Positions 1 to 63,500 of a stretch of DNA of 64,000 bases are shown piece by piece. The notes below the pieces were generated by a model that was not told where the DNA came from, ran no database searches, and saw only the letters and a list, made by a program, of their open reading frames with translations. Each line of letters begins with the position of its first letter. Position 1 is the first letter of the stretch. This stretch comes from Armatimonadetes bacterium DC (GTDB taxonomy: Bacteria > Armatimonadota > Fimbriimonadia > Fimbriimonadales > GBS-DC): contig LDYB01000004.1 in NCBI GenBank assembly GCA_001442985.1, positions 13,063 through 77,062 on the forward strand. The letters run 5' to 3'. Made by a program: the position numbers and the translations under genes.

Positions 1-814
1 CGACCTTACTGAGGTTGCGATACTCGCCACCGCCGGGGCGACGCGCTTCCTGCTCCAGTTGCTGAGTCAGGCGTGCAAGGCGGGCGGCTGCCGACTGCTG
101 GGCAGTAATCGCATCGTAGAGTTGCGCCTCGAATCGGGCGATCTGCTGCAGGAGCAGGTTGGTCTGGTTGTCTCCCTGAATCACATCTTTGTTCTGGTTG
201 AGGTACTCGCTCAGTTGGCGTGTGGCGCGTTCATACTCGCGCTGGGCGTCTTCATACTGGCGCTGCACGAACTCGCGTGAGGGGCGGGCAACCTGCGCGT
301 TAAGGTTGCTGTAATGCTCCTGAAACTTACTGAGCAGAATGGTCATTGCGTATTCTGCCTGTCGGCGCGCCTCTTCGTCCCCCTGCGTTCGAATGGAAAC
401 GCTGAGGTACTCGGTGTTAGGGATAGGCTTAATTTCAAGGCGGTTGAGCAGGTCTAAGGCGCCGCGCAGGTCTTGCTCATTCGGGGGGTAGTTTTGCCGA
501 ATCGTTTCTGCAGGGGCCCAGTTGCCGCTATCGCGCAGCTCGCGCCAGGTGCTGAGTAGCACGGTATAGCTGCGTACCACATTCGCCATATTCTGCAGGC
601 GCGTAATCAGGTCCACCTGAAGGGTGTAGGGGTCGGGATAGATAACCGTGCGGTTGGACTGCAGGGCGCGATACTCGGCGATAACGGCAACACCCTCCCA
701 CTCGTTTGGCTTAGTCCAGTAGTAGGTGAACACCGCGCCCGTGACAACGCCCGTGATCAGGGCAATCCACCACCAGCGCCGTTTCAGAAGTTTAATTGCT
801 TGCCATAAAGTCAT
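1..814 (-). CDS. Polysaccharide chain-length determinant (Wzz/GumC-like) protein, 5' part only; gene continues past the window start
   Basis: Open frame running off the left edge, so absent from the ORF track. My translation from ATG 814 gives MTLWQAIKLLKRRWWWIALITGVVTGAVFTYYW..., an N-terminal TM helix followed by a long Q/E/R-rich coiled-coil-like region. GGGAGG SD 8 nt upstream. Directly follows the wza-like gene. Confidence 0.6.
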   Translation of the reverse strand, partial: MTLWQAIKLLKRRWWWIALITGVVTGAVFTYYWTKPNEWEGVAVIAEYRALQSNRTVIYPDPYTLQVDLITRLQNMANVVRSYTVLLSTWRELRDSGNWAPAETIRQNYPPNEQDLRGALDLLNRLEIKPIPNTEYLSVSIRTQGDEEARRQAEYAMTILLSKFQEHYSNLNAQVARPSREFVQRQYEDAQREYERATRQLSEYLNQNKDVIQGDNQTNLLLQQIARFEAQLYDAITAQQSAAARLARLTQQLEQEARRPGGGEYRNLSKV

Positions 815-830
815 CGTTGAAACCTCCCTC

Positions 831-1742
831 TTAGGGTCTCCAGAGCGAGCGGGCTATGCCGAGATTTCTCAGCAGCCAGAGAATAGAGAGCGCTCGATAG
901 GCTTGATCGTAGTTCGGCGTGCGCGTTTCCGCCACATACACAACATCACCGGGCTGGAGTTCGATATTCTGACTCATGTCGCCCTTGTGCAGGAGCTTGA
1001 TCATATCCACCTGGATTTGCTCCTCTTTGCCCTCGCTATTTTTGCGTATCACATAGGTACGGCTGAGCGCGGCGCGCTCGGTTTCCCATGACGCCTGGCT
1101 CAGCGCGTCCAGCACGGTCAAACGGGGGCGCCATGTGTAAAGTCCAGGGCGCTTCACCTGCCCGCCCACGAAGTAGCGATTCTGGGTCTCTTCGGGAATG
1201 AAGATGGTGTCGCCATCTTGTAGAGGGATATTGAGACTCAGGTCTCCCTCCTCGTAGAGCCGGCGCAGGTTGAGAGGAATTTTGGTGCCATCGATACGCT
1301 GGAGCCAGGAGTCTTCCATGCGGGCGCGTTCCACCACAGGACCCCCTGCATAGGAAAGTGCATCCAGCAGGCGGTCGCCGTCCTTAAATTCGTAAACGCC
1401 AGGGCGATTCACGAATCCCAGCACGGAAACACGCGGGCGATGGTACTGCTCGATGTTCACCACGACACGCGCTCGGGTCAGATATTGCATGCGCACCAGT
1501 TCGCGCGCGATGCGGTCTGCAAGTTCATCGGGGGTCAGCCCCTGGGCTTGAAGTGTGCCTATCGGAGAAAACGAGATCGTGCCATCACGGCGCACAACAA
1601 TCCCGCGCTGAAACAGTTCCGGGAAGCCATCCACACTAATAGTAATCACATCGTCCGCTTGCAGGCGGTAGGGACCTTCGGTTCGCTGGGCGTGCAGCCA
1701 ACAGACCAGCGCCATGCTCATCCCAATCAAGAACCAGCGCAT
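831..1742 (-). CDS. Polysaccharide export protein (Wza-like, Poly_export + SLBB domains)
   Basis: ORF 831..2015 trimmed to ATG 1742 (MRWFLIGMSMALVCWLHAQ signal peptide, GGGAGGG SD). Motifs: YRLQADDVITISV, DGTISFSPIGTLQAQGLTPDELA, VSVLGFVNRPGVYEF, LLDALSYAGG, YFVGGQVKRPGLY. Confidence 0.85.
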   Translation of the reverse strand: MRWFLIGMSMALVCWLHAQRTEGPYRLQADDVITISVDGFPELFQRGIVVRRDGTISFSPIGTLQAQGLTPDELADRIARELVRMQYLTRARVVVNIEQYHRPRVSVLGFVNRPGVYEFKDGDRLLDALSYAGGPVVERARMEDSWLQRIDGTKIPLNLRRLYEEGDLSLNIPLQDGDTIFIPEETQNRYFVGGQVKRPGLYTWRPRLTVLDALSQASWETERAALSRTYVIRKNSEGKEEQIQVDMIKLLHKGDMSQNIELQPGDVVYVAETRTPNYDQAYRALSILWLLRNLGIARSLWRP

Positions 1743-1781
1743 ACAACTCCCTCCCATAAGGTTCGTTCCATCTCCTGAGAC

Positions 1782-1797
1782 AGCAACTTTCGTGCCA
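1782..1797 (-). promoter_or_regulatory. sigma54 (RpoN) -24/-12 promoter element facing the wza-like operon
   Basis: Reverse complement reads TGGCACGaaagTTGCT. All specified positions of the TGGCACG-N4-TTGCW consensus match, with GG-N10-GC spacing. Predicted TSS near 1771, giving a 29-nt leader with an SD before ATG 1742. Confidence 0.7.
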
Positions 1798-1862
1798 TGC
1801 GTTCCACTCCTTGTTGGATTATCGGCATCTCCTCTCGATTTCTCAAGGTATCCGCCATGCAG

Positions 1863-1870
1863 ATTATACC
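1863..1870 (-). promoter_or_regulatory. Possible distal sigma70-type extended -10 box (GGTATAAT) for the wza-like operon
   Basis: Reverse complement of agattatacc is GGTATAATCT, the same box type seen at many gene starts in this window. It would give a leader of about 114 nt. Confidence 0.35.
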
Positions 1871-1881
1871 TGACATCCGTT

Positions 1882-1897
1882 TGGCACGGAAGTTGCT
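1882..1897 (+). promoter_or_regulatory. sigma54 (RpoN) -24/-12 promoter element facing the secreted propeller protein/HDOD operon
   Basis: TGGCACGgaagTTGCT, a perfect consensus with GG-N10-GC spacing. It is 17/18 identical to the divergent copy at 1782-1797. Predicted TSS near 1908. Confidence 0.7.
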
Positions 1898-2080
1898 GTG
1901 GCTTTTTGCGAGGGCGCCGTGCCTGCAGCACGAGGCGGAATTGGACGCTTAACAGCGAAGGGTTAGGGCTTGGCGAGCTGTGTTCGTGCTGCCTATCGGC
2001 GCCCTCTCTTCCCAACTCTCGCGATTTTACCTGCCCGCCTCCCGCTTACCGTATGGAACAAGCCGAGTGGGAGGCGAACA

Positions 2081-3829
2081 ATGAAGCGACTTTGGGGAGT
2101 TTCTCTGGGAATTGCGCTGGTCTGTACCCTTTACGGCGATCCGAACGCTTTACGCACGCCCACAGGCTACCTCTGGGCTGGAACCACCTTTACGCTCCGG
2201 GCGCACGCCACAGCAGGCAGCCTGACGCAGAGTTCCGCGCCTGCACAGGTGCGCGTGGGGCAAATCATCCACTGGCAAACGATGGTGGACTCCCCCGCTG
2301 GCGCCAGCATTCCCATCGGGAGCGCCGTGTTCAGCACGCGCGTGGTCAATATGGGCAACGGCTATGATCGGCTTAGTTTCGAAGTGTGGCAGGACGAACT
2401 GACAGACCCCCTGTGGACGGTGCGTCTCTATGAGAACCCCCGCGGCGACGGACAGATTTCAAGCAGCACGCTGATTGCCACCCCAGGAAGCGGAGGGCAA
2501 GGACGCCTGATAGCGCCCGGGGAGACGATTCAGTACCTTGTGCAGGCAACTCCGCCCGGCAGCTCCGTACCAACCGACGGCGTGTGGGTGGCGGCGACCT
2601 ATAATACCTCCGTGCCTTCCCGGACCAACCGCCTGCTGGGCGAATTTGTGGCGGGGGTTCGTCGCTCTGCAGGGGTGCATAGTCGGGCTACCAGTAACCT
2701 GAACTACCTGATTGCCGTAGCGCCCGTGTTAGCCGATTCAAGACTTTTCTGGATCGGGACTGACCCGGCAACTAACCGGAGCCTTCTCTATTACACCCCC
2801 AATCCCATCACGGTGCAGGGTAGCACGCTTTCTTCTAACCGGCAGACCTATGGGCGCACACTTTCCAACTTCGCGCCCTCGGGTTTCAGTGTGGTACTGG
2901 GCACGGGCTGGTTCACGGGCAACGGCTCCCAGCTGGTGCGGATTGACCTCGCCCGGGTGCTTGCGAATAATACTTCTGCAGACCCCTATCAGGTCGTTTC
3001 GTTGCCCAACACGCAGCCGCGTCTGGATCTGACCCCCGCAATTTACAACGGGCGACTTTATGTCGCAGGAGCCGATAACCGTCTGCATGTGATTCGCGAC
3101 AACGGCACATGGGCAGCCCAGAGCGCACGCCCCTCCACCACCGTGGGGAACTTCTCCTGCTCGCCGCTCGTGGCGGGTTCCTCGCTGTATATTGGCACGG
3201 ATCGGGGCTACATTCTGCGCTTTGACCTGACCAACGGCGGAATCGCCCAGTCGCGCCAGGTGGCGAGCAACCTCCCCATTCGGAGTCTGGCGCTGACGCG
3301 CGATGGGCGTCTGCTGCTGGCGCGGGCAGGCGACAACCGGGTGTTGGGGCTGCTGGTTGGCAACCTGACAACCTATTACTACTACAATACCCCCCAGCCC
3401 ATCGTTTCGCCCCTCACCTATCACTGGGATACCGACACGGTGTTGTTTATGACTCAGGATGGCTTTCTGTACGCGCTGAATGCGCAAACGGGCATGCCGC
3501 GTCCGCATTATCCCCAGCAAATCTGGAGCGGGCAGCCCCTCCAGCGCGCGACGCTGGCAGTGATGCTTCAGGAAGGACGCAAGGCTTACTATGTGTACGC
3601 CTTAGCCCAGCAAGCCACAGCAGGGGGGGGCACTCAGGGGCGGTTCGCAATGATTACGCTGGTCAACCCCTATAACCAATACGAGGTTTCCGAGACCTCG
3701 ATGTATACTGGCTCGGATTACCTGCCGTGGATCAGTTTTACGGGCAACCAGAGCTACAGCTTCTGCCTGATTGCGGCGCGAACCCATGCAACACCGCAGG
3801 GGGTTGTCGCAGCGATTAACATCCGATAA
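2081..3829 (+). CDS. Secreted protein, paralog A: N-terminal Ig-like (DUF11/CARDB-like) region plus C-terminal PQQ-like beta-propeller repeats
   Basis: ORF 1970..3829 trimmed to ATG 2081 (MKRLWGVSLGIALVCTLYG signal peptide, GGGAGG SD). VVNMGNGYDRL and APGETIQYLV resemble DUF11-type Ig domains. Repeated LYVAGADNRLHVI / LYIGTDRGYILRFD / DGFLYALNAQTG blades. Full-length paralog at 27631..29325. Confidence 0.8.
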   Translation: MKRLWGVSLGIALVCTLYGDPNALRTPTGYLWAGTTFTLRAHATAGSLTQSSAPAQVRVGQIIHWQTMVDSPAGASIPIGSAVFSTRVVNMGNGYDRLSFEVWQDELTDPLWTVRLYENPRGDGQISSSTLIATPGSGGQGRLIAPGETIQYLVQATPPGSSVPTDGVWVAATYNTSVPSRTNRLLGEFVAGVRRSAGVHSRATSNLNYLIAVAPVLADSRLFWIGTDPATNRSLLYYTPNPITVQGSTLSSNRQTYGRTLSNFAPSGFSVVLGTGWFTGNGSQLVRIDLARVLANNTSADPYQVVSLPNTQPRLDLTPAIYNGRLYVAGADNRLHVIRDNGTWAAQSARPSTTVGNFSCSPLVAGSSLYIGTDRGYILRFDLTNGGIAQSRQVASNLPIRSLALTRDGRLLLARAGDNRVLGLLVGNLTTYYYYNTPQPIVSPLTYHWDTDTVLFMTQDGFLYALNAQTGMPRPHYPQQIWSGQPLQRATLAVMLQEGRKAYYVYALAQQATAGGGTQGRFAMITLVNPYNQYEVSETSMYTGSDYLPWISFTGNQSYSFCLIAARTHATPQGVVAAINIR

Positions 3830-3849: not shown

Positions 3850-4698
3850 ATGGAACTCAGTGCATTGAGCATTCGTGTGGCGCGGACCCCGGGCTTGGGG
3901 ATGTTGCCCCAGATTACCAGCCAGATTCTGCGCATGGTGGACAATCCGAACGCTTCGCCGCGTCAAATCGGTGCGCTGATCGAGCGCGACCCCGGTCTGG
4001 CGTCCAAGCTGCTGAAGACCGCCAACAGCGCGTATTACGGCTCGCCGGGCAAGATTAAGACCGTCTCGCAAGCCATTTCGGTGATGGGGCTGTCGGCGGT
4101 GCGCTCGGTGGTGGTGAGTCAGGCATATCAGCAGATGACGGCGGTCCGGGGCGCTTCCAAACGGTTTGATCGGCTGGCGTTCTGGCAACACTCGCTGGCG
4201 ACTGCCAGCGCCGCGCGGGTGCTGGCGAAGCTCAAAGGCTACCGCGACCCCGAAGAAGCCTTTCTGGCGGGACTGATGCACGATGCGGGGCGGCTGGTGA
4301 TGGATCGGTTCCTGCCCAACGAGTTTGATCAGATTTGCACGCTGGCGCTGGAGCGCGTCATCCCGCTGATTGAAGCCGAACGCGAGGTGCTGGGCTATAC
4401 CCATGTGGAAATTGGCGACATGCTGGCAGAGCAGTGGAACCTGCCCGATGGCTTGCGCACTGCCATCCGCATGCACCATCAGCCGAAGGGCACCTTCGCG
4501 GAATGCCCGCTGGGCTATCTGGTCTACGCTGCCAATATCGTGGCGCATCAAGTGGGGTTCGCGCTACAGCCGCCCGTCCTCTACAGTCTGGAAGAGCAGC
4601 CCAAGCAGGAGCTGGGGATCCCGGACGCGCAGCTGGAGGGGCTGAAGCAGGTCGTCCTGCAGGAGGTCATGCGCACCCAGGAAGTGCTGAAAATTTAG
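3850..4698 (+). CDS. HDOD domain protein (stand-alone signalling/regulatory module)
   Basis: LPQITSQILRMVDNPNASPRQIGALIERDPGLASKLLKTANSAYYG, AISVMG, LMHDAG, GYTHVEIGDMLAEQWNLP, IRMHH. GGAGG SD. Begins 20 nt after the upstream gene. Confidence 0.85.
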   Translation: MELSALSIRVARTPGLGMLPQITSQILRMVDNPNASPRQIGALIERDPGLASKLLKTANSAYYGSPGKIKTVSQAISVMGLSAVRSVVVSQAYQQMTAVRGASKRFDRLAFWQHSLATASAARVLAKLKGYRDPEEAFLAGLMHDAGRLVMDRFLPNEFDQICTLALERVIPLIEAEREVLGYTHVEIGDMLAEQWNLPDGLRTAIRMHHQPKGTFAECPLGYLVYAANIVAHQVGFALQPPVLYSLEEQPKQELGIPDAQLEGLKQVVLQEVMRTQEVLKI

Positions 4699-4994
4699 CC
4701 CAGCAGGAAACTGCTCACCAGAACCCCCAGGCTCCAGAGGCTCACATACAGCCCGATTGCCAGTCGGGTCCAGCGAGCCACAAACTGCGGGTTGTGCTTG
4801 CGATACCACTCGGCAAACCCAATTGCAAGCACAACCGTCGCGCCTTTCACTGCAAAAAAGGCGAACCAGCCAAACCCCAGCACCCAGTTCATAATCGGGT
4901 TGAACTCGGTCGCCAAGCCGTTCGTGATGAGCCAGTAGGTGCTGAGCGCGTCCGCAAGGCAAATCAAGAGAAGTGCCCAACTCTCCCGTGTCAT
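4695..4994 (-). CDS. Small integral membrane protein (DUF5658-like, E-x-NP motif)
   Basis: ORF 4695..5105 trimmed to ATG 4994 (MTRESWALLLICLADALSTYWLITNGLATEFNPIMNW...). Three predicted TM helices. Paralog at 51551..52012. Confidence 0.7.
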   Translation of the reverse strand: MTRESWALLLICLADALSTYWLITNGLATEFNPIMNWVLGFGWFAFFAVKGATVVLAIGFAEWYRKHNPQFVARWTRLAIGLYVSLWSLGVLVSSFLLG

Positions 4995-5010
4995 AGCAAG
5001 GGGGCGAATC

Positions 5011-5026
5011 AGCAACTTTCGTGCCA
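5011..5026 (-). promoter_or_regulatory. sigma54 (RpoN) -24/-12 promoter element upstream of the DUF5658-like gene
   Basis: Reverse complement reads TGGCACGaaagTTGCT, identical over 16 nt to the 1782-1797 copy. It lies in the 50-nt gap between the nnr stop and ATG 4994. Predicted TSS near 5000, only about 6 nt before the ATG. Confidence 0.65.
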
Positions 5027-6636: not shown

Positions 6637-7599
6637 TTACCCTCTGGCGTTTTTGAGCTCCTCAATCAGCTGAGGCACAACCTCGTAGAGGTCTGCCACC
6701 AGCCCATAGTCGGCGACCTGAAAGATGGGCGCTTCGGGGTCAATATTAATCGCCACAATCACACGCGAGTCTTTCATGCCCGCGAGGTGTTGCACCGAGC
6801 CAGAGATGGCTACCGCGATATAGAGTTCGGGGGCGACGGTCTTGCCCGTTTGCCCAACCTGCAGTTCGTTCGGGGCAATCCCGGCGTCGACGGCAGCACG
6901 GGTGGCGCCCACTGCCCCACCCAGCACATCTGCCAGCCCGCCGATGTATTTTTCAAAAGTCTGAGGGTCTTTGAGGGGGCGTCCGCCGGAGACCACCACG
7001 CGCGCCTGAGTGAGGTCGGGGCGTCCACCGCTGCTGCCTTGCAGGCTGAGCCATTCGGAGCGCGTGGGGATTTCGGCAGGCAGTTCCGCATTCTGGATAG
7101 GGGAAGCGCCTTCTTTCGGCTCTGGCTTGCCCCATGCGGGACCGCGCACGGTCAGCACAACGGGCGTGCCCTCCACTTCAAAAGTGCCAATCAGGTTCGC
7201 CGAGTAGATGGGGCGTCGAGCAATCAGCGTGCCGTTCAGGGATTCGAGGGCAGTAATGTCGCTGAGCATGGGCGCGTCTAACAGTCCAGCCGCGCGGGCG
7301 AGCGTGTCGCGGCTGAAGGTGGTGGTTGTGCTGGCAATCAGGTCTGCGCCAATCTGCCGCGCGAGGTGGGCAATCACAGGCGCATAGCGTTCGGCGAGGG
7401 GTTTGGCAAGGCGCGGGTCGTCCGCCACCCACACGGTCTGAGCGCCGTAGCCCGTGAGTAGCTCCAGATTCTGCAGGGAAGAGCCTACCGCCAGAATGTG
7501 GAAGTCGTTCGGGGCGATTTTCTGCGCAAAAGCAATCGCGGGCAGGGTCTTCTCCGAAACACGGCTGCCGTCCGTTTCCGCAACAATCAGAATCTTCAT
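6637..7599 (-). CDS. etfA: Electron transfer flavoprotein alpha subunit
   Basis: 320 aa. C-terminal FAD-binding signature [19 protein letters not shown]. Follows etfB. Confidence 0.95.
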
Positions 7600-7613: not shown

Positions 7614-8363
7614 TCAGATGACGCGCGCCTCTTCCTTGAGCAGGCGCACCAGCTCTTTGACATCCGCGACACGCTTGCCTGCCTGGCGTGCGGGCGGTTT
7701 TTCAACCTTCTTGAGGCGCACGCGCGCTTTGGGTGTGATGCCCAGGTCGGCGGGTGTCAGCGTTTCCAGCGGTTTTGTGCGGGCGCGCACAATCCCTGTG
7801 AGGGCGACATAGCGTGGCTCGTTCAGGCGCAGGTCGGCAGTAATTACCGCAGGCAGGGGCACGCGAATCGTCTCGATGCCGTTATCGGTTTCACGCTCGA
7901 CGGTGGCAGTGCTGTCTTCAATCGTGATTTTAGAGGCGAAGGTCGCCTGCGGCAGGTTCAAAATCGCTGCCAGCATCTGCCCTACCTGATTGTCGTCCAT
8001 GTCAATCGCCTGTTTGCCCATCAAGATAAGCTGGGGCTGTTCGCGTTGCACAATCGCTGCCAGCAGGCGTGCGATAGAAGGGGGGTCCAGCGGCTCTTCG
8101 GTTTGCACGAGGATGGCGCGGTCGGCGCCCATCGCCAGCGCCGTGCGTAACTGCTCCTGCGACTCCGCGCCGCCGATAGAGACTGCCACAATTTCGGTCG
8201 CCTTGCCTGCCTCTTTCAGACGAATTGCTTCTTCTAATGCAATCTCATCGAAGGGGTTGACCGCCATCGTCAGCCCCTCACGCGCAATATCGGTACCGTC
8301 GGCGTTGGGGCTGATTTTGGCATATGGGTCGGGAACACGCTTGACAGTAACGAGAACCTTCAT
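7614..8363 (-). CDS. etfB: Electron transfer flavoprotein beta subunit
   Basis: MKVLVTVKRVPDPYAK..., VNPFDEIALEEA, typical ETF-beta. AAGGAGG SD. Confidence 0.95.
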   Translation of the reverse strand: MKVLVTVKRVPDPYAKISPNADGTDIAREGLTMAVNPFDEIALEEAIRLKEAGKATEIVAVSIGGAESQEQLRTALAMGADRAILVQTEEPLDPPSIARLLAAIVQREQPQLILMGKQAIDMDDNQVGQMLAAILNLPQATFASKITIEDSTATVERETDNGIETIRVPLPAVITADLRLNEPRYVALTGIVRARTKPLETLTPADLGITPKARVRLKKVEKPPARQAGKRVADVKELVRLLKEEARVI

Positions 8364-8391
8364 CGGTTATTGCCTCCTTATTCCGCGCGAG

Positions 8392-8397
8392 ATTATA
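8392..8397 (-). promoter_or_regulatory. -10 box (GGGGTATAAT on minus strand) for etfBA, leadered
   Basis: Reverse complement of gattataccc. About 22-nt leader carrying AAGGAGG before ATG 8363. Confidence 0.5.
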
Positions 8398-8410
8398 CCC
8401 CAAGCGAGGG

Positions 8411-8416
8411 TATACT
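8411..8416 (+). promoter_or_regulatory. -10 box (GGGTATACT) for the P-type ATPase, leaderless-type
   Basis: 8 nt between the hexamer and ATG 8425. Confidence 0.5.
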
Positions 8417-8424
8417 TGCAGAGG

Positions 8425-11121
8425 ATGGCACTTCCCGAAGTGGTTGGAACGGAGCGCCCCGTGTGGCATGCCGTGCCATGCGAGCAGGTGGCGCGTTTTC
8501 TGAACACCAGCCCGAACGGGTTGTCGCAGCAGGAGGCGCAGGCGCGGCTGAACCGCTACGGCGAAAATGTGCTGGAAGAAGCAAAGCCCATCAGTATTTT
8601 TCAGTTAATCCTTCACCAGTTTCAGAGTCCCCTGATTTACATTCTGCTGGTCGCGGCGCTGGTTACGCTCTGGATGGGGGACTATATCGATTCCGCAGTG
8701 ATAGCGGCGGTCCTATTGCTGAACGCGACCGTGGGTTTCGTGCAGGAATACAAAGCAGAGCGCTCCGTGCGTGCCCTGCAGCGGTTGACCGCGCCCCGCG
8801 CCCATGTGATTCGCGATGGGGTTGAGAAGGTGATTGAAAGTCGCCTGCTGGTGCCGGGCGATGTGGTGCTGCTGGAATCGGGCGTGCGTGCGCCCGCAGA
8901 TATACGGCTTTTCTCCGCCACGGCGCTTCAGGCAGACGAATCGTTGTTGACGGGGGAATCGGTTCCTGTGCTGAAGCAAACGGCGCCTGTGCCCGAGACG
9001 ACTCCGCTTGCCGATCGGGTGAACATGGTGTACGCGGGTTCCATCATCACAACGGGGCGCGGGCGGGGCTATGTGGTGGCGACGGGCAAGCACACGGAGC
9101 TGGGCAAAATTACCGAAAGCATCCGCGAGCAGGCAACGCCCGAAACGCCCCTGCAGCGCCGCATGCGCCAGTTTGCCAACATTCTGGGCGTCGCAATTGG
9201 CATCAGCTGTGCGCTGATTTTCGCGCTGGGGCTGGCGCTGGGCAATAGCCCCCTGCACATGTTCAAGGTGGTGGTGGGGATTGCGGTCGCCTCAATTCCC
9301 GAAGGGCTGCCGATTGTGCTGACGATTACGCTGGCGCTGAGTGTGAACCGCATGGCGCAGCGGAACGCCCTCGTGCGAAACCTGCCCGCTGTGGAAACCC
9401 TCGGCAGCACGACGGTCATCGGTTCTGACAAGACGGGTACGCTGACCATGAATCGCATGACGGTACAGGAATACTGGGTCGCAGGTGAGGTGTTTCGCAT
9501 GGAAGCCCTCGCCGAGTCGGTTCGCGAGGACCATGACGATTCGCACCCGTTCCTGCTGGCGCTGCTGACGGGCATTTTGACCAACGAGGCAGATGTGCGC
9601 GAAACAGAGGCGGGCTACGAGATTCATGGCGACCCGACGGAAGCCGCGCTGCTGATGGCGGCGCTTCGGGCGGGGCTACACTACCGCACAGTACGGGCGG
9701 CGCACCCTGTAGTGGGCGAAATCCCCTTCGAGCCAGAACTGCAATATTCCGCCAGTGTGCGCCAGCGGGGCGACGAGCATTGGGTTTTTGTGAAGGGCGC
9801 CCCTGAGCGTGTGTTCCGCATGGCCCAGGCGTGGCTGACCCCCGAAGGGGAGAGACCTTTTGATTCCGCCGCGCGGGAACAGGTTCAGGCGCAGGCGCGG
9901 GCGATGGCGCAGCGCGGGTTGCGCGTGCTGGCGCTCGCTTATCGACGCCTTCCCCAACCGCTGGACCCTTCTGAAGGCGTGCCCGAACCCACCGGGCTGG
10001 TGTTGATTGGGCTGGTGGGTATGATGGACCCGCCGCGCCCGGGCGTGCTGGAGGCAATTCAGGACTGCCACCGCGCAGGCATTCGCGTGCTGATGATTAC
10101 AGGCGACCACGCCGAAACGGCGCGCGCGATTGCCCACGAGCTGGGAATTGCCGACCGCGACGCCCCCGTGCTGACGGGAGTTGACCTGCAACAGATGGAC
10201 AACGCCACCCTTCAGGAGCAGGTCAAACAGGTGAATGTGTTTGCGCGAGTCACGCCCGAGCAGAAGTTGCGCATCGTGCGGGCGCTTCAGGCGAATGGCG
10301 AGGTCGTGGCGGTTACGGGCGATGGGGTGAACGATGCGCCCGCGCTCAAAGCCGCCGATGTCGGCATCGCGATGGGACGCTCAGGCACCGATGTCGCCCG
10401 CGAGGCTGCCGATATTGTGCTGGCAGATGATAACTTCGTGTCTATCCGCAACGCCGTAGAAGAGGGGCGAATCGCCTTTGACAATGTGCGCAACGCCACC
10501 TTTTTCCTGCTCTCCACAGGCATGGGGTCTATCTTGCTGTTTTTCCTGACGCTGCTGGCAGGGCTACCCGTGCCGATGCTGGCGGCGCAGCTGCTCTGGC
10601 TGAACCTGGTCACGAACGGATTGCAGGTTGTGGCGCTGGCGTTTGAGCCGGGCGACCGTAGCGTGCTGTTGCGCAAGCCGCGCTCACGCAACGAAGGGAT
10701 TATCTCGCCCCTGCTGTGGGAACGCACGGTGATTGTCGGCGCCCTGATTGCCGTCGCTACTTTCTGGTCGTTCCAGCAGGAGTATGCCCGAACAGGGAAT
10801 TTGACCTACGCCCAGACGGTGGCGCTCACCACGATGGTGCTGTTCCAGAACTTCCATGTGGGCAACTGTCGCTCGGAGCATCGCTCGGCGTTTCTGTTGA
10901 GTCCCCTGCGCAATCCGTTTCTGCTGCTGGCGGCAATCAGCGCGTTAACGGTGCATGCGCTGGCGCTCTATCTGCCCCCGACGCAGTTCGTGTTGCGCGT
11001 GGCGCCCATCCCGCTGGAGACATGGGTGCAGATGGCGTTGGTGGCGTTGAGCGTGGTGGTTGTGGTGGAGATTCACAAGTGGGTGCGCCATCCCCATCTG
11101 GCGCGCATGCGGGTCAATTAG
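8425..11121 (+). CDS. Cation-translocating P-type ATPase (type II, Ca2+/Mg2+-like; substrate not resolved)
   Basis: ORF 7990..11121 trimmed to ATG 8425, because the upstream part overlaps etfB. Motifs: cation-ATPase-N domain, TGES, DKTGTLT, GDGVNDAPALK. Confidence 0.9.
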   Translation: MALPEVVGTERPVWHAVPCEQVARFLNTSPNGLSQQEAQARLNRYGENVLEEAKPISIFQLILHQFQSPLIYILLVAALVTLWMGDYIDSAVIAAVLLLNATVGFVQEYKAERSVRALQRLTAPRAHVIRDGVEKVIESRLLVPGDVVLLESGVRAPADIRLFSATALQADESLLTGESVPVLKQTAPVPETTPLADRVNMVYAGSIITTGRGRGYVVATGKHTELGKITESIREQATPETPLQRRMRQFANILGVAIGISCALIFALGLALGNSPLHMFKVVVGIAVASIPEGLPIVLTITLALSVNRMAQRNALVRNLPAVETLGSTTVIGSDKTGTLTMNRMTVQEYWVAGEVFRMEALAESVREDHDDSHPFLLALLTGILTNEADVRETEAGYEIHGDPTEAALLMAALRAGLHYRTVRAAHPVVGEIPFEPELQYSASVRQRGDEHWVFVKGAPERVFRMAQAWLTPEGERPFDSAAREQVQAQARAMAQRGLRVLALAYRRLPQPLDPSEGVPEPTGLVLIGLVGMMDPPRPGVLEAIQDCHRAGIRVLMITGDHAETARAIAHELGIADRDAPVLTGVDLQQMDNATLQEQVKQVNVFARVTPEQKLRIVRALQANGEVVAVTGDGVNDAPALKAADVGIAMGRSGTDVAREAADIVLADDNFVSIRNAVEEGRIAFDNVRNATFFLLSTGMGSILLFFLTLLAGLPVPMLAAQLLWLNLVTNGLQVVALAFEPGDRSVLLRKPRSRNEGIISPLLWERTVIVGALIAVATFWSFQQEYARTGNLTYAQTVALTTMVLFQNFHVGNCRSEHRSAFLLSPLRNPFLLLAAISALTVHALALYLPPTQFVLRVAPIPLETWVQMALVALSVVVVVEIHKWVRHPHLARMRVN

Positions 11122-12886: not shown

Positions 12887-13609
12887 TCAGGGTTCGTAGC
12901 GGATGGTGTCCGCGGCGCGATAGATTCTGCCGCCGATTTTGAGTTCCACCCACACGGTATGTTCGCCGGCGGTTGCGGGCAGTTGCCACTCCAGTTCCGA
13001 CTGGGGTTTGCGCCATGGCTGCCAGTTCTGTCCATCGGCGCTCAGGCGAATCTCAGAAGCGAGCGCCGCGCCATGAACGAACAGTTTCACCTTGCGGGAG
13101 CGGGTAATCGGGGCGTCGTTCTCTATAATCAGGGGGTAGACGCCCTCGCGTCGGGCGAAAACCACACAGCAAATTTTGGCGGAGAGCGAGTTGGGTTTTT
13201 CTCTCACGCCCACGCCGAGCTCGCGATAGTCTGGCGAGAGCAGAATTTTGCGGTGCTGCTCGCTTCGGAGCCATGCTTCCAGTGCATCGCCCCATGTGGG
13301 CGCGAAGGCTAAGATTTCGCCGACTGCCTGAATCTCATAGCCGCGCTCGCGCAGTCGCTGGGAGGGGCGCCGCCCCTCTTTGTCGTGATGGGTCAGCTGC
13401 CCAGTCTCTGCAATCACTTCCGCTTGATACTGCGCCGCATCGCTGATAATCGGGTTCAGTTTTAGCGGCGGTACGCCATGCGCGGCGCGCAGCGCGTTCA
13501 GCTCCGCTGTATAGGCTGCCAGCGCCGTCGCGTTCTCTGTTGCGTCATAACCTGCGGCTCCAAGACAATAAGCCCAGAGCCACAGCCCAACGAGCCATCC
13601 TTTTCGCAT
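12887..13609 (-). CDS. Secreted CAP/SCP (YkwD-like) domain protein with a C-terminal beta-rich domain
   Basis: ORF trimmed to ATG 13609 (MRKGWLVGLWLWAYCLGAAG signal). NALRAAHGVPPL, HHDKEG, GEILAF, WLRSEQHRKILL are typical of the CAP superfamily. Confidence 0.75.
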   Translation of the reverse strand: MRKGWLVGLWLWAYCLGAAGYDATENATALAAYTAELNALRAAHGVPPLKLNPIISDAAQYQAEVIAETGQLTHHDKEGRRPSQRLRERGYEIQAVGEILAFAPTWGDALEAWLRSEQHRKILLSPDYRELGVGVREKPNSLSAKICCVVFARREGVYPLIIENDAPITRSRKVKLFVHGAALASEIRLSADGQNWQPWRKPQSELEWQLPATAGEHTVWVELKIGGRIYRAADTIRYEP

Positions 13610-13684
13610 ATCACACGCGCCACTGCCTCCATGATAACCCATCCCAGAGGCAGGGCGGTAGGGACTTTTGTCCTGAATTTCCTC

Positions 13685-14989
13685 TTACTTGCTGGCGCGG
13701 ACAGGGCGCATCATTTTCTCAATCGCGTCGGGGTCGTCCGGGAGTGCGGCGGAAAGGTTCACCACGCCCTTTTCGGTCATCATGTAGTCATCTTCAATCC
13801 GAATGCCGATATTCTCGCTGGGGATGTAGACCCCCGGCTCAATGGTGAACACCATGCCGGGCTGGAGCGGCTTGCCCAGATCGGGGTCATGCACATCCAT
13901 GCCCATCATGTGCGAGAGCCCGTGAACGAAGAAGGCGTCTAAGGTGCGTTCCTGTCCGTTTTCGTCACGGGCGCGCAGGGGCGAGTTGCGCAATACCTCC
14001 ACCGCCTTCATGTGCAGGTCGCGCAGGGTCATGCCCGGTTTGGCGTGGCGCTCCACCGCGCGTTTGGCTTCCAGCACCGCCATGTAAAGTTCGCGCTGGC
14101 GTTTGGTGAACTTGCCCGAAACCGGGTAGGTGCGGGTGATATCTGCCGCGTAATAGGAATACTCTGCGCCGATATCGATCAGCACCAGCTCGCCTGCCTG
14201 CATGCGGCGCTTGTTCGCATTGTAATGCAGAATGCAGCTGTTCGGACCGGAGCCGATAATGCATGGATACGCCTCGCGCTCGGAGCCGTGCCGACGGAAG
14301 GTCGCCTGCACAATCGCTTCGATCTCGTACTCATAAACGCCGGGTTTAATGGCGCGCGCCAGATTGCGATGAGCTTCTATTGTCGCCTGAATTGCCTTGC
14401 GAATCAGGCGCTGTTCGGCAGGCGACTTGATAAGGCGCAGCTCCGCCATCGCCCGCTCAATAGAAAGGGGTTCCACTTCGGGGCGAATCTGGCGCAGGGT
14501 GTCGGCGTAGCCCGTGCGGGCATGGCGGTTCATCAGCACCCGCGGATGATGTTGCAGAGCGGTTTCCAGAAACGCCTGCAGTTCCGCCATCGGGCGCACG
14601 GAGCGGATGCCCGTTGCCAGCTCGGTCTCTTTATCGGGCTGGAAAGTGCGCCCCTCAAAAATCTGGGAGATTCGCGACTGGGGTCTCAAAAACAGAATCT
14701 CGCGCTCGCCAGTGGGGCTATCCATCGGCAACACCACCAGCAGGGCGTTCGGCGCTTCCACACCCGTGAGGTACATAAAGTGGCTATCCTGCCGGTAGCG
14801 CATGCGGGTGGGAGCCGGGGGTTCGCTGGCAACCAGCGCCATCTGGTCCGGTTCCAGCTGTTGCGCCAGTCGGGTTCGGCGTTGCGCATACTCGTTAATC
14901 TCGATGCCCCAGAGCGTGCGCGGCTCTGAAACCGCATGCACTACCCCAAAACATAACACCCACAACCAGAAAACACGCCAGCGTCGCAT
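13685..14989 (-). CDS. Xaa-Pro aminopeptidase (M24B) with signal peptide
   Basis: ORF 13685..15472 trimmed to ATG 14989 (MRRWRVFWLWVLCFGVVHA). Motifs: DIGAEYSYYAADITRT, HGLSHMMGMDVHD, EPGVYIP, IRIEDD. Confidence 0.9.
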   Translation of the reverse strand: MRRWRVFWLWVLCFGVVHAVSEPRTLWGIEINEYAQRRTRLAQQLEPDQMALVASEPPAPTRMRYRQDSHFMYLTGVEAPNALLVVLPMDSPTGEREILFLRPQSRISQIFEGRTFQPDKETELATGIRSVRPMAELQAFLETALQHHPRVLMNRHARTGYADTLRQIRPEVEPLSIERAMAELRLIKSPAEQRLIRKAIQATIEAHRNLARAIKPGVYEYEIEAIVQATFRRHGSEREAYPCIIGSGPNSCILHYNANKRRMQAGELVLIDIGAEYSYYAADITRTYPVSGKFTKRQRELYMAVLEAKRAVERHAKPGMTLRDLHMKAVEVLRNSPLRARDENGQERTLDAFFVHGLSHMMGMDVHDPDLGKPLQPGMVFTIEPGVYIPSENIGIRIEDDYMMTEKGVVNLSAALPDDPDAIEKMMRPVRASK

Positions 14990-15028: not shown

Positions 15029-15919
15029 ATGGAAGTTTCGCCCCTGAGTGCCCTGATTTCGCAACTGTTCTGGCTCTTCTTTATCTTTATGATGCTGATG
15101 CCGATGGTGCGCCAGCGGATGCTGGAATCGGCGCGCCTCAGCATGATTCGCCAAATTGAGAAAATGCGCGGCACCCGCGTGATTGTGCTGATTCATCGCC
15201 AGGAAGCGCTTTCGTTTTTTGGCATCCCCGTGTTCCGCTTTATCAGCGTGGAAGACTCGGAAGAAGTGTTGCGCGCAATCCGCATGACCCCGCCCGATAT
15301 GCCGATTGACATCATCCTGCACACGCCCGGAGGGCTGGTGCTGGCGAGCCAGCAGATTGCCTGCGCCCTGTGCGACCACAAGGCGAAAGTAACCGCCTTC
15401 GTGCCGCACTATGCGATGTCGGGGGGCACGCTGATCGCGCTCGCCGCCGACGAGATTGTGATGGACCCGCACGCCGTGCTGGGTCCTGTAGACCCGCAGG
15501 TGGGGCAGTTCCCTGCCGCCTCCATTCTCAAAGTGGTGGAGCAGAAACCCATCAGCGAAGTAGATGACCAGACGCTGATTCTGGCAGATATTTCTCGCAA
15601 GGCGTTGGCGCAGGCGCTGGAGCTGGTGCGCAATGTGCTGGTGGCGAACGGCATGCCCTTAGAGCAAGCCGAGCAGGTGGCGGATAAGCTCACCCAGGGT
15701 TATTACACGCATGATTACGCGATTACCGCCGACGAGGCGCGCGCGATGGGGCTGAATGTGCGCACCGACCTGCCCCAGGAGATTTATCAGCTGATGGCGC
15801 TCTACCCGCAGCCGGTACAGCGCACGGCAGGCGTGGACTATGTGCCTGTGCCCTACCATCCAGAGCCTGCGCCGCCCCAGCCGCAACGCCCCGTGCGTGG
15901 AAGAAGGATACGCAATTAG
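15029..15919 (+). CDS. Membrane-anchored SDH-family Clp-fold serine protease
   Basis: N-terminal TM helix. IILHTPGGLVLASQQIA and YAMSGGTLIALAADEIVM match the serine dehydrogenase proteinase (ClpP-fold) family. Confidence 0.8.
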   Translation: MEVSPLSALISQLFWLFFIFMMLMPMVRQRMLESARLSMIRQIEKMRGTRVIVLIHRQEALSFFGIPVFRFISVEDSEEVLRAIRMTPPDMPIDIILHTPGGLVLASQQIACALCDHKAKVTAFVPHYAMSGGTLIALAADEIVMDPHAVLGPVDPQVGQFPAASILKVVEQKPISEVDDQTLILADISRKALAQALELVRNVLVANGMPLEQAEQVADKLTQGYYTHDYAITADEARAMGLNVRTDLPQEIYQLMALYPQPVQRTAGVDYVPVPYHPEPAPPQPQRPVRGRRIRN

Positions 15920-22613: not shown

Positions 22614-22616
22614 TAA

Positions 22617-24095
<1,479 letters not shown>

Positions 24096-36710: not shown

Positions 36711-36784
<74 letters not shown>

Positions 36785-60500: not shown

Positions 60501-63500
60501 CGCTACGCGATTACAGGCGAACCCGTGCAGGGCTTCGGGGAGCAAGCGGGTCTGTGGTGGACGATTGTCTCGGGCGCGTTCACCGATTTCGCAAACGAGA
60601 TTTTAGACCTCCGCCGCCTCGCCAGCGACCCCGCCCCCAACTGGAAACAACTCCGTGAACGGGGCGAGAAACTGGTACAACAGATTCTGGAGTTCGGGCA
60701 GTGGGTGGGGCGGATGCAACCCGACGCCACCCTCCAGAAACCTTACCAGCATGTACGGTTCGGGGCGCAGTTGCTGGGGCAGTCGGCGCAACATATGGCA
60801 CGCTACTTGCTGTCGCGCAATAACGAGGAGGCGGAACAGGCAGCCACGCTCCGCATCGAGGCGTTGCGCGAGCTGGAATCTGCCCAGCCGAAACCTGAGT
60901 GATGATCGAACTGGGGTTGCTAATGGGTCTGGCTGTGCTGGGGGGCGCCGCCATCACATGGTGGAGCCGACGCGCCTGCCCCTTCTGTCCACGCCCCCCT
61001 GTGATGGCGCATCAGCGCGTGCAGATGGAGGTGGAGGGGCAGACCTACACCGTGCTGTTGCATACAATAACGGAAAGCCATCTTGTGCTGACGCCGCCGG
61101 TGCGCAACGGATTGCCCCTGCGTTTTGAGACGGGCACGCGCGTGCGCCTGACGCTCACTGCGCCGGGCGGCGTGTATACAATGGAGAGCCAGTTCACCGG
61201 GTTCACGCGCGAAGGCGCCCACTCCTATCTGCTGATCGCGAACCCTTCCCGCTGGCAGGTGCATCAGCGACGTCGGCAACCGCGCGTCCTGCTCGCCGAC
61301 GAAGTGCCCCTCGAAGCGTGCGCCAACGGCAAGACCTTCATCGGCTGGGTGCAGGATGTGAGCGCAGGGGGCATGCGCCTGTTCGCCCCCGTGCCGCTCG
61401 CCGAAGGAACCCTGCTGCAGCTGGACATCCCGCCGGGTCTGAAGGGAGCGCTTTCGGAGGGCATCCGCACCGCGCAGGTTCGCGCCTGCAAGCGTACCCT
61501 GCACCGCCACGATTACCTCTTCTGTCTGCACCTCGCCTTCACCGATGGCTAACGCGCCCGACCTCTCGGTGATTATCGTCAACTACAACACGCGCGACCT
61601 GCTGCGGGAGTGTTTGCTGGCTCTGAGGCACTGCGCAGGGGTCTCTCTGGAGATCATCGTGGTGGACAACGCCTCCGCCGACGGCAGCGCAGAGATGGTG
61701 CGCACTGAGTTCCCGGAGGTCGTGCTGATTGCGAACGCCGAAAACAGGGGCTTTGGCGCGGGGTGTAATCAGGGATTGCGCGTGGCGCAGGGGCGTTATG
61801 CGCTGATTCTGAACGCCGATGCGCGCCCTCAGCAACACGCGCTCGCCCGACTCGTCGCATTTATGGACGCCCATCCCGAAGCCGCTGCCTGCGGGGGACA
61901 GCTCCGCTATCCCGACGGACGCATCCAGCCCTCGTGTGCAACGGACCTGACCCTCTGGGCGGTCTTCTGTGAGCAAACAATGCTGGAGAAGCTGTTCCCC
62001 AAAACGCGCCTGTTCGGCGGCTACTGGCGCACATGGTGGGACTTCAGCAGCACCATAGAGACCGAGCAGCTGATGGGCGCATGCCTGATGCTCCGCCGCC
62101 AGCCCGATGGAGCCTTTCCCGAATTTGACGAGGCGTACTTCCTCTACTGCGAGGACACCGACCTCTGCTATCGCCTGCGCAGAGCAGGGGGCAAGCTCTA
62201 TTATGTGCATGACGCGATTTTTGTGCATCATCTGGGGGCAAGCGGGGAGGGTCAGCGTGCCGAGATGGTGATTTATTACAATCGCGGCAAGGAGCGGTTC
62301 TTTCGCAAGTTTCATGGGGCGCTCCCTGCCGCGCTCTGTTTTCTGCTGAACCAGTTCGGTGCGCTCCTGCGCTGGCTGATCGGGTTCAGCCTGACAATCT
62401 TGACGCTGGGGCGCGTGGCGCGGTATCGCCGCTACGCCAGCATCTTCTGGCGCGTGTTCTGGCGACGCATGCCTAATGCCCATCAATAGACACAGGACGG
62501 TAGCCGCCCCGTGCCCGATAGTACAGGAACTGCGCCCCGAACAGCACCACCAGAATCGCAGGCAGGATGGCGACCACACGGAAGGTCATCGCCGCGCCCT
62601 CGCGCAGTGCCTGATCCAGCACCTTCACCTGTTCCTGTGCCGTCGGATCGCCGGCTTCTGCCTGCTGGCGCAATTCCGCAGCTTTTTCGGGGCTGTACCG
62701 TCCGTCCACCACCACAATCTGGCGCACTTCGGGCGTGAGATTACGGATGGTGTATTCGTCATAGATGCGCCCCATCGAGGGACCCGCGACGCCTGCGGCA
62801 ATCATGCCTGCCGCGCCCATCACCGCCAGCAGGAATTCGCCCCCACGCGGATAGCGCTCCGACACCACGCCCAGCATCGTGGGCCAGAAGTAGGCTTTGC
62901 CTATCCCGAAAATGGTCGCCGCCAGAAACGCCATCCCCGCCTCGAAGGCGTAGCTCAGCATGTACAGCCCCACCGCGGCGAACGCCGCGCAGATTGCCAG
63001 CAACCCGATTGGCGTGAACACCCGCGCGACAGGTCCCGCCACAAGGCGCAACACGAACATCAACCCCGAAGTGTACACCAGAAACAGAATCCCACGAATG
63101 CCCACCGTGTCGGTCAGCACGGAACCCACCCACTGGTCGGGTCCCAGCTCGGTGATGGCGGTCATACACATGCACAGAATCAGCAACAGCACGCCGGGGC
63201 GCAGAATCTGCATGAACATCTCGCCCATGCTGACTCCCGAAGCGGCGCGCTCGGTTGGTGGAAAATGTTCCGTCCAGATCATGGCGCCGTAAATCAACGC
63301 GGGCACGATAATCATGCCCAGTCGCACCTGCCACGGAGCGTTGAAGAATTGCGCCAGCGCGAAGGTTACCAGCCCGCCAATAATCAGCCCACCTGGCCAC
63401 CATGCGTGCAGCACATTCAGCTTGTGGGTTTTCTCGTTGGGATACATGGTGGCTGCCAGCGGGTTAATCACCGCCTCCACGGTTCCGTTCGCCAGTCCCA

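Follow-up and report, generated by a model that had tools for sequence, protein, structure and literature searches.

In a 64,000-nucleotide stretch of the genome of Armatimonadetes bacterium DC, a member of the Fimbriimonadales (assembly GCA_001442985.1, contig LDYB01000004.1; the whole stretch is called the window here), one intergenic region separates two divergent units: an exopolysaccharide (EPS) operon that begins with a gene for a Wza-like export protein (hereafter wza), and a gene for a secreted beta-propeller protein. It carries two outward-facing boxes that are very probably functional sigma-54 (RpoN) -24/-12 promoters, standing back to back; we infer sigma-54 binding from the motifs themselves, the pattern of their conservation and the genes that they precede.

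Two divergent boxes and their conservation

The plus-strand box, TGGCACGGAAGTTGCT, faces the propeller gene, and the minus-strand box, which as its reverse complement reads TGGCACGAAAGTTGCT, faces wza; both are exact where the original prediction had placed them, and both have the GG-N10-GC spacing (Table 1). The sequences at the two boxes make up an inverted repeat whose 18-nt arms stand 84 nt apart and are complementary at 17 of 18 positions, the near-identity that had been described. Counting the C of GC as -12 puts the predicted starts of the divergent pair only ~137 bp apart. The minus-strand box ends 40 nt from the ATG of wza, at 1742, and the plus-strand box 183 nt from that of the propeller gene, whose position at 2081 gives the propeller leader its predicted ~173 nt. 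GGGAGGG at 1749-1755 lies within the short wza leader, as had been proposed on the assumption of a start near 1771.

The motif also occurs beyond chance, as had been estimated: exact matches to TGGCACGNNNNTTGCW (TGGCACG-N4-TTGCW) number four in the window against 0.01 expected, and none of 100 dinucleotide shuffles reached four. With one mismatch allowed, 12 matches against 8 expected are at background level, so the signal resides in the perfect sites. All four exact boxes are co-oriented with a gene whose start lies ~16-185 nt downstream. One of the one-mismatch sites, CGGCACGCTGATTGCT at 7219-7234 on the minus strand, lies within an electron-transfer-flavoprotein-like open reading frame (ORF; 6637-7599) and is probably due to chance.

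We retrieved orthologous loci (29 in all, designated by L-numbers) from genomes and metagenomes; close relatives of the Wza and propeller proteins came from metagenome-assembled genomes labelled Fimbriimonadales or Armatimonadota. The original prediction had proposed conservation in orthologous intergenic regions as a check, and the boxes passed it on both sides: the wza-side box is present in each of the seven distinct orthologous loci, and of 11 true propeller orthologues, with protein identities down to ~44%, 10 have the propeller-side box. On the wza side it reads TGGCAC[G/A]AAAGTTGCT in L001, L002, L003, L008, L009, L015 and L016; it is also kept in L028, whose Wza is 65% identical and whose upstream neighbour is an H+-pyrophosphatase gene with no propeller gene nearby, and in L029, whose Wza is 52% identical. 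On the propeller side, GG and TTGCT are kept in L001, L002, L003, L008, L015, L016, L017, L019, L021, L022 and L029, and single changes outside GG/GC produce CGGCAC (L002), TGGAAC (L015) and TGGTAC (L016). Four of these loci (L017, L019, L021 and L022, with propeller proteins 44-48% identical) keep the box in four different wza-free neighbourhoods, and a 31%-identical propeller paralogue, in L024, never had a box.

Across 24 box instances, positions 2, 3, 5, 6 and 12-16 (GG, A5, C6 and TTGCT) are invariant, and nearly all variation falls at spacer positions 7-11. Invariant columns in a seven-way alignment of the intergenic region make up 94% of the wza box (15/16) and 69% of the propeller box, 38% of the core between the boxes and 33% of the wza leader; flanks and spacer diverge around both conserved boxes. 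Judged from the sequences, this substitution pattern is that expected of a -24/-12 promoter and not of a repeat: the arms drift apart in relatives, each keeping the consensus, and are therefore not a repeat kept for self-complementarity.

The divergent, adjacent arrangement is present in the window and in L001, L002, L003, L008, L015, L016 and L029. Elsewhere the genes are separated and each box stays with its own gene, wza alone in L028 and the propeller gene alone in L017, L019, L021 and L022; we therefore read the pair as two independent modules that are adjacent in one subclade.

The genes on either side are as originally assigned, with Poly_export and SLBB, Wzz, propeller and HDOD domains all found. 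In L015, L028 and L029, wza is followed by genes for a Wzz/tyrosine autokinase, a Bac_transf priming transferase, an NAD-dependent epimerase, a UbiA-family prenyltransferase, GtrA, the exosortase EpsH, EpsI and an ABC ATPase; in the window, the exosortase part of the operon would lie beyond coordinate 1, and its content is taken by synteny. Exosortase_EpsH and EpsI are encoded in the orthologous operons of L028 and L029, and EpsI passes TIGR02914 (60 bits; cutoff 42.8). The best NCBIfam match of the Wza-like protein is TIGR03027 (XrtA/PEP-CTERM EPS export), and the equivalog cutoffs of the XrtA system are unmet throughout: 110.7 bits against 208 for XrtA, 143.5 against 180 for TIGR03027 and 112 against 231 for pepcterm_TyrKin. 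By its predicted gene content this is an exosortase system, though not demonstrably of the XrtA subtype. In L029, an extra sigma-54 box, TGGCACGTTAATTGCT, lies at 15865-15880 on the plus strand, at the end of the UbiA-family gene and immediately before gtrA-epsH-epsI, where it may serve as an internal promoter for the exosortase half of the operon.

The propeller protein belongs to a family of ~110 homologue clusters, and every cluster with a named source comes from Fimbriimonadales or Armatimonadota. Its AlphaFold model (predicted local distance difference test score 90.9) has BamB and YxaL as top Foldseek matches (E ~1e-12); the modelled fold is a generic one and points to no function. The HDOD gene, which begins 20 nt after it, is probably co-transcribed with it; the pairing recurs in L016 and L029 and is absent in L017, L019, L021, L022 and L023.

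Table 1. Features of the window bearing on the sigma-54 boxes. The four boxes listed are the exact motif matches of the pattern scan; starts and leaders are predicted.
Feature	Position	Strand	Basis or details
5' part of Wzz/tyrosine-autokinase (polysaccharide co-polymerase, PCP) gene	1..814	-	Wzz 20.5 bits, below Pfam cutoff 25.5; extends past window edge
Wza-like polysaccharide export protein, first gene of operon	831..1742	-	Pfam Poly_export + 2 SLBB
Candidate wza sigma-54 -24/-12 promoter, TGGCACGAAAGTTGCT	1782..1797	-	Start ~1771, leader ~29 nt
Sigma-70-like promoter toward wza, upstream of its sigma-54 box	1818..1846	-	-35 TTGAGA 1846..1841, 17 nt, -10 GATAAT 1823..1818
Second -10-like box toward wza, GGTATAAT	1863..1870	-	Conserved; without conserved -35
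Candidate propeller (+HDOD) sigma-54 -24/-12 promoter, TGGCACGGAAGTTGCT	1882..1897	+	Start ~1908, leader ~173 nt
Structured RNA element, propeller leader	1907..2010	+	P1 = 1911-1919 with 1997-2005; then internal loop, P2, variable apex
Hairpin pairing Shine-Dalgarno GGGAGG (2069-2074) with CCUCCC (2038-2043)	2035..2077	+	Minimum free energy (MFE) folds
Secreted 582-aa protein: signal peptide, N-terminal beta-sandwich region, C-terminal BamB/YxaL-like beta-propeller	2081..3829	+	Pfam PQQ_2
HDOD-domain protein	3850..4698	+	HDOD 7e-61
Third sigma-54 box, TGGCACGAAAGTTGCT	5011..5026	-	Directly before DUF5658 membrane-protein gene 4695-4994 (-)
Fourth sigma-54 box, TGGCACGCTACTTGCT	60796..60811	+	Within 3' end of TPR gene, 91 nt before PilZN+PilZ gene
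YcgR-like PilZN+PilZ gene	60902..61552	+	Pfam/NCBIfam
GT2 glycosyltransferase gene, overlapping the preceding	61545..62489	+	Pfam/NCBIfam

The core between the boxes and alternative readings

Three conserved blocks lie in the core between the boxes: GATTATCGGCAT (1817-1828), TTTCTCAAGG (1839-1848) and GATTATACC (1862-1870). Read toward wza, the first two blocks give TTGAGA-17-GATAAT, which scored 10/12 in a consensus scan for sigma-70-like promoters; ATTATCGGC is invariant in seven loci and TCAAGG in six of the seven, and GATAAT is found in L028 as well. The third block holds the GGTATAAT box, for which the original prediction of a distal sigma-70-type element for the export operon gains support: ATTATACC is invariant in seven loci, with the forms GGGTATAATC in L028 and GCTATAAT in L029. 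The distance of this box to either sigma-54 box varies, but it keeps a constant 45-47 bp from the GATAAT block. Both -10-like blocks recur upstream of wza in L028 and not consistently at propeller-only loci; they follow wza, and we therefore read them as wza-directed sigma-70 elements that probably give it enhancer-independent, basal transcription. TTGAGA-17-GATAAT is a better sigma-70 candidate than the neighbouring GGTATAAT box. Alternatively, the conserved core blocks may be a wza-specific activator site.

In the mechanism that we propose, sigma-54 RNA polymerase would wait at each box as a closed complex until an ATP-dependent enhancer-binding activator, encoded elsewhere, remodels it and the promoter fires. 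The minus-strand box would drive the wza-led operon through to exosortase EpsH and EpsI, and the plus-strand box the lineage-specific propeller gene, with the HDOD gene, by way of a long structured leader; the outcome would be tight on/off control of cell-surface polymer production. The two promoters would be independent modules, adjacent by happenstance in this subclade, and the wza operon probably has additional sigma-70-type promoters further upstream for its basal expression.

Several observations weigh against control by sigma-54. Signatures of rpoN or of a bacterial enhancer-binding protein (bEBP), namely GAFTGA, the RpoN box and the bEBP Walker A motif, were absent from six-frame translations of the window and the 29 loci (364 kb), a motif-level scan that included no dedicated RpoN protein search, and Pfam searches on 28 window ORFs gave no rpoN or bEBP. 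The text of the Fimbriimonas ginsengisoli genome paper names only rpoD, rpoE and fliA as sigma factors (PMC4072686), and a literature search gave no paper tying sigma-54 to Armatimonadota, Fimbriimonas or Fimbriimonadales. Around the boxes, no common upstream activator motif emerged among 25 box instances, a repeat scan of 1700-1960 found no palindrome besides the boxes, and the 84 bp between them is little room for a conventional looping enhancer. One of the 11 true propeller orthologues, that of L023, is without the box. Lastly, in Aquincola the EPS genes themselves appeared RpoN-independent (PMC9850573).

The alternative that survives best keeps both sigma-54 promoters but gives them a common enhancer, situated between or around the boxes; EPS export and the propeller protein would then be strictly co-induced. 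The promoters are adjacent and divergent in the eight loci named above, the window included, and the conserved GATTATCGG and GATTATACC lie, in mirror image, ~45 and ~90 bp from each predicted start. There is precedent in the divergent sigma-54 promoter pairs of Escherichia coli, zraP/zraSR and hycA/hypA, which have a mapped activator-binding region between their starts, with an integration host factor (IHF) site as well in hyc/hyp; like these, the window has two outward-facing -24/-12 promoters in one intergenic region, but its starts are closer and it has no visible palindromic activator site. Moreover, the blocks follow wza (as in L028) and not consistently the propeller gene (L017, L019, L021, L022), their spacing from either box differs by as much as 68 bp, no palindrome is present, and the two units are unlinked in many genomes. 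Strict co-regulation through a single enhancer is unsupported, and we consider it rather unlikely. The original prediction had joined two claims: the divergent sigma-54 promoters are supported by the conservation of the boxes; for single-enhancer co-regulation no shared upstream motif was found, and the units occur independently in other genomes.

It is very improbable that the motif is instead the operator of a lineage-specific DNA-binding regulator, with transcription arising from the sigma-70-like elements. Conserved boxes of that kind do exist for wza, and no rpoN came to light in the window or the 29 loci; yet at its invariant positions the motif agrees exactly with the sigma-54 consensus (GG-N10-GC, TGGCAC, TTGCT), it lacks symmetry and points toward the downstream gene in every case, and propeller-only loci, DUF5658 genes and PEP-CTERM genes have the box without a conserved sigma-70 element. 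It would be surprising for an operator to reproduce a promoter consensus in front of five unrelated genes. Still less likely is an invertible promoter segment (inverton) or small mobile element with the arms as its inverted repeats, in which flipping of the 84-bp core would switch expression between wza and the propeller gene. In its favour are the 18-nt, 94% complementary repeat that flanks the segment and the single direction in which TTGAGA-17-GATAAT and GGTATAAT within it both point. We rejected it for an orientation of the core that is identical in all nine orthologous loci, from independent assemblies, and for a substitution pattern in which arm complementarity drops in relatives (~13/18 in L015) while the sigma-54 positions are fixed, and besides, the motif stands singly before propeller, wza, DUF5658, PilZ and PEP-CTERM genes, no recombinase domain is found among the neighbouring genes, and 84 bp is, to our knowledge, shorter than invertible segments are.

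A structured leader before the propeller gene

Downstream of the candidate sigma-54 promoter, the propeller leader contains a conserved RNA element in which P1 pairs GGGCGYCG with CGRCGCCC and a conserved internal loop sets UGC(Y)U opposite GCCUAU. When ten orthologous leaders were folded together with RNAalifold, 96% of cells were paired and five pairs had compensatory changes; 0 of 500 shuffles reached the covariation score, and slid controls were 37-56% paired. The window copy has a folding z-score of -3.0. A covariance model of the element, R1, gave one match per locus, between the sigma-54 box and the propeller gene, scoring 72-96 bits on the sense strand and ~20 bits on the antisense strand; the L029 copy, left out when R1 was built, was still found (37 bits, E=2.6e-5) and adds a sixth covarying pair. 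Searches against Rfam 15, over the window and permissively over 1600-2200, gave the leader no match at the gathering threshold (best 11-15 bits, E>2).

The Shine-Dalgarno sequence of the propeller gene is predicted to lie in a second structure, a hairpin with an invariant UGGAA (2054-2058) at its tip and a conserved UUUUACCUG (2025-2033) just 5' of it; MFE folds of 11 orthologous 3' leader parts place the Shine-Dalgarno sequence in a local hairpin in most. L023 keeps UUUUACCUG and the hairpin part despite having lost the sigma-54 box and the upstream element. At 9902-10000 of that locus (GCA_026003115.1) stands only ~100 nt of upstream DNA with neither a sigma-54 box nor a P1/P2 element, which looks like a natural promoter replacement.

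Two other identities for parts of the leader were rejected. An intrinsic terminator made of the P1 stem and a U-run fails because the U-run is confined to L017 and L021; a sigma-70 or extracytoplasmic function (ECF)-type promoter at TTTACC...TGGAAC in the proximal leader has the wrong geometry, because with a GGAAC -35 just 27 nt before the ATG, the transcript would begin within the ORF. Our best guess is that the leader responds to a ligand or a protein and gates translation. The element and the Shine-Dalgarno hairpin may together be a new class of cis-regulatory RNA confined to Fimbriimonadales, a riboswitch or protein-binding leader, a proposal that we make tentatively. If it is right, the enhancer-dependent promoter would be followed by a second checkpoint in the leader, acting after initiation.

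Other boxes and relation to known sigma-54 systems

The remaining two exact boxes precede genes of other kinds. The third is kept before the DUF5658 gene in L001, L002, L003, L008 and L016, each time with a spacer of its own. The DUF5658 start lies 16-25 nt past the box (window 4994-5026, minus strand; L002 331-375; L016 6560-6605), leaving a predicted leader of ~5-14 nt without a Shine-Dalgarno sequence; such a transcript would be nearly leaderless, which is unusual for sigma-54.

The fourth box is invariant in L025, L026 and L027, and of 30 bins of 100 nt, the one that holds it is the most conserved (95%; 86% overall); this is weak support because these relatives are only ~14% diverged. The PilZ and GT2 pair that follows it is a possible cyclic di-GMP (c-di-GMP)-gated polysaccharide synthase. 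The TPR genes before PilZ were considered as PrsT and rejected, their similarity being generic to TPR (54; cutoff 312). About 4 kb past the PilZ gene, L025 has a stand-alone PEP-CTERM gene (13343-13780, minus strand) that ends in VPEPASLTAIGVGLASLLGLRRCKR and is preceded by a perfect box, TGGCACAAAAGTTGCT, at 14126-14141; L027 has the same arrangement (8061-8708, minus strand), with TGGCACAAAAGTTGCT. In both, the box stands ~350 nt upstream, in a ~650-nt intergenic region. By synteny, the window's equivalent gene would lie just past coordinate 64000. The PEP-CTERM genes of L024, L028 and L029 have no clear sigma-54 box.

Elsewhere in the window we noted a thiamine pyrophosphate (TPP) riboswitch (77 bits) at 22616-22725 on the plus strand, directly upstream of an ORF starting at 22728, and one tRNA gene (36711-36781, plus strand); among the retrieved loci, L022 has at 1-2570 (minus strand) a ribonucleotide reductase gene with an intein that carries a LAGLIDADG endonuclease domain.

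Among known systems, the nearest is the PEP-CTERM/exosortase sigma-54 (PrsR) regulon of Proteobacteria. As Haft et al. (2006) describe, proteobacterial PEP-CTERM genes are mostly single and lie behind long intergenic regions in which an activator motif is followed ~63 nt further on by a sigma-54 motif, and that motif co-occurs with the NtrC-type activator PrsR, PrsK and the TPR protein PrsT (PMC1569441); for Aquincola pepA, RpoN1 dependence and a -24/-12 start have been shown experimentally (PMC9850573). The likeness extends to an EPS locus with a Wza-type exporter, a PCP/tyrosine kinase, a priming transferase, an exosortase and EpsI, to a PEP-CTERM gene standing alone downstream of a large intergenic region that holds a -24/-12 motif (L025, L027) and to TPR genes nearby. 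The differences are that the phylum here is Armatimonadota; that the exosortase, exporter and kinase all fall below the equivalog cutoffs of the XrtA-type system; that a box stands directly before the export/exosortase operon; that boxes also precede genes other than PEP-CTERM ones (propeller, DUF5658, PilZ+GT2); and that neither PrsR nor PrsK, nor an enhancer resembling motif 1, was detected in the window and the fetched loci. Together, the boxes before the EPS, propeller, DUF5658, PilZ+GT2 and, in close relatives, PEP-CTERM genes look like an Armatimonadota counterpart of that regulon.

A broader survey is consistent with such a role: Francke et al. (2011) link EPS and other envelope functions with sigma-54, which they find in nearly all diderm bacteria with lipopolysaccharide (LPS; PMC3162934), and Fimbriimonas is predicted to be diderm (PMC4072686). 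As in that survey, sigma-54 promoters here would accompany EPS synthesis and transport and c-di-GMP-linked functions; in contrast, the survey predates Armatimonadota genomes, and propeller, HDOD and DUF5658 are not among the conserved associations in the part of it that we draw on.

The locus may be the first described sigma-54 regulon of Armatimonadota, with an unclassified exosortase system, a claim that we put forward as a possibility and separately from that of the leader RNA. Almost no genetic work exists for this phylum, and few of its members are in culture; for it the boxes provide a concrete, testable regulatory map of surface-polymer production, in which an EPS export/exosortase operon, a PEP-CTERM protein, a PilZ-linked glycosyltransferase and a clade-specific propeller protein would share one enhancer-dependent promoter type. 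The association of PEP-CTERM proteins with sigma-54 would thereby extend from Proteobacteria to Armatimonadota, and the propeller leader offers a clear-cut candidate for a structured regulatory RNA of a new kind. If the boxes are read as sigma-54 promoters, rpoN and a PrsR-like activator should be encoded in these genomes.

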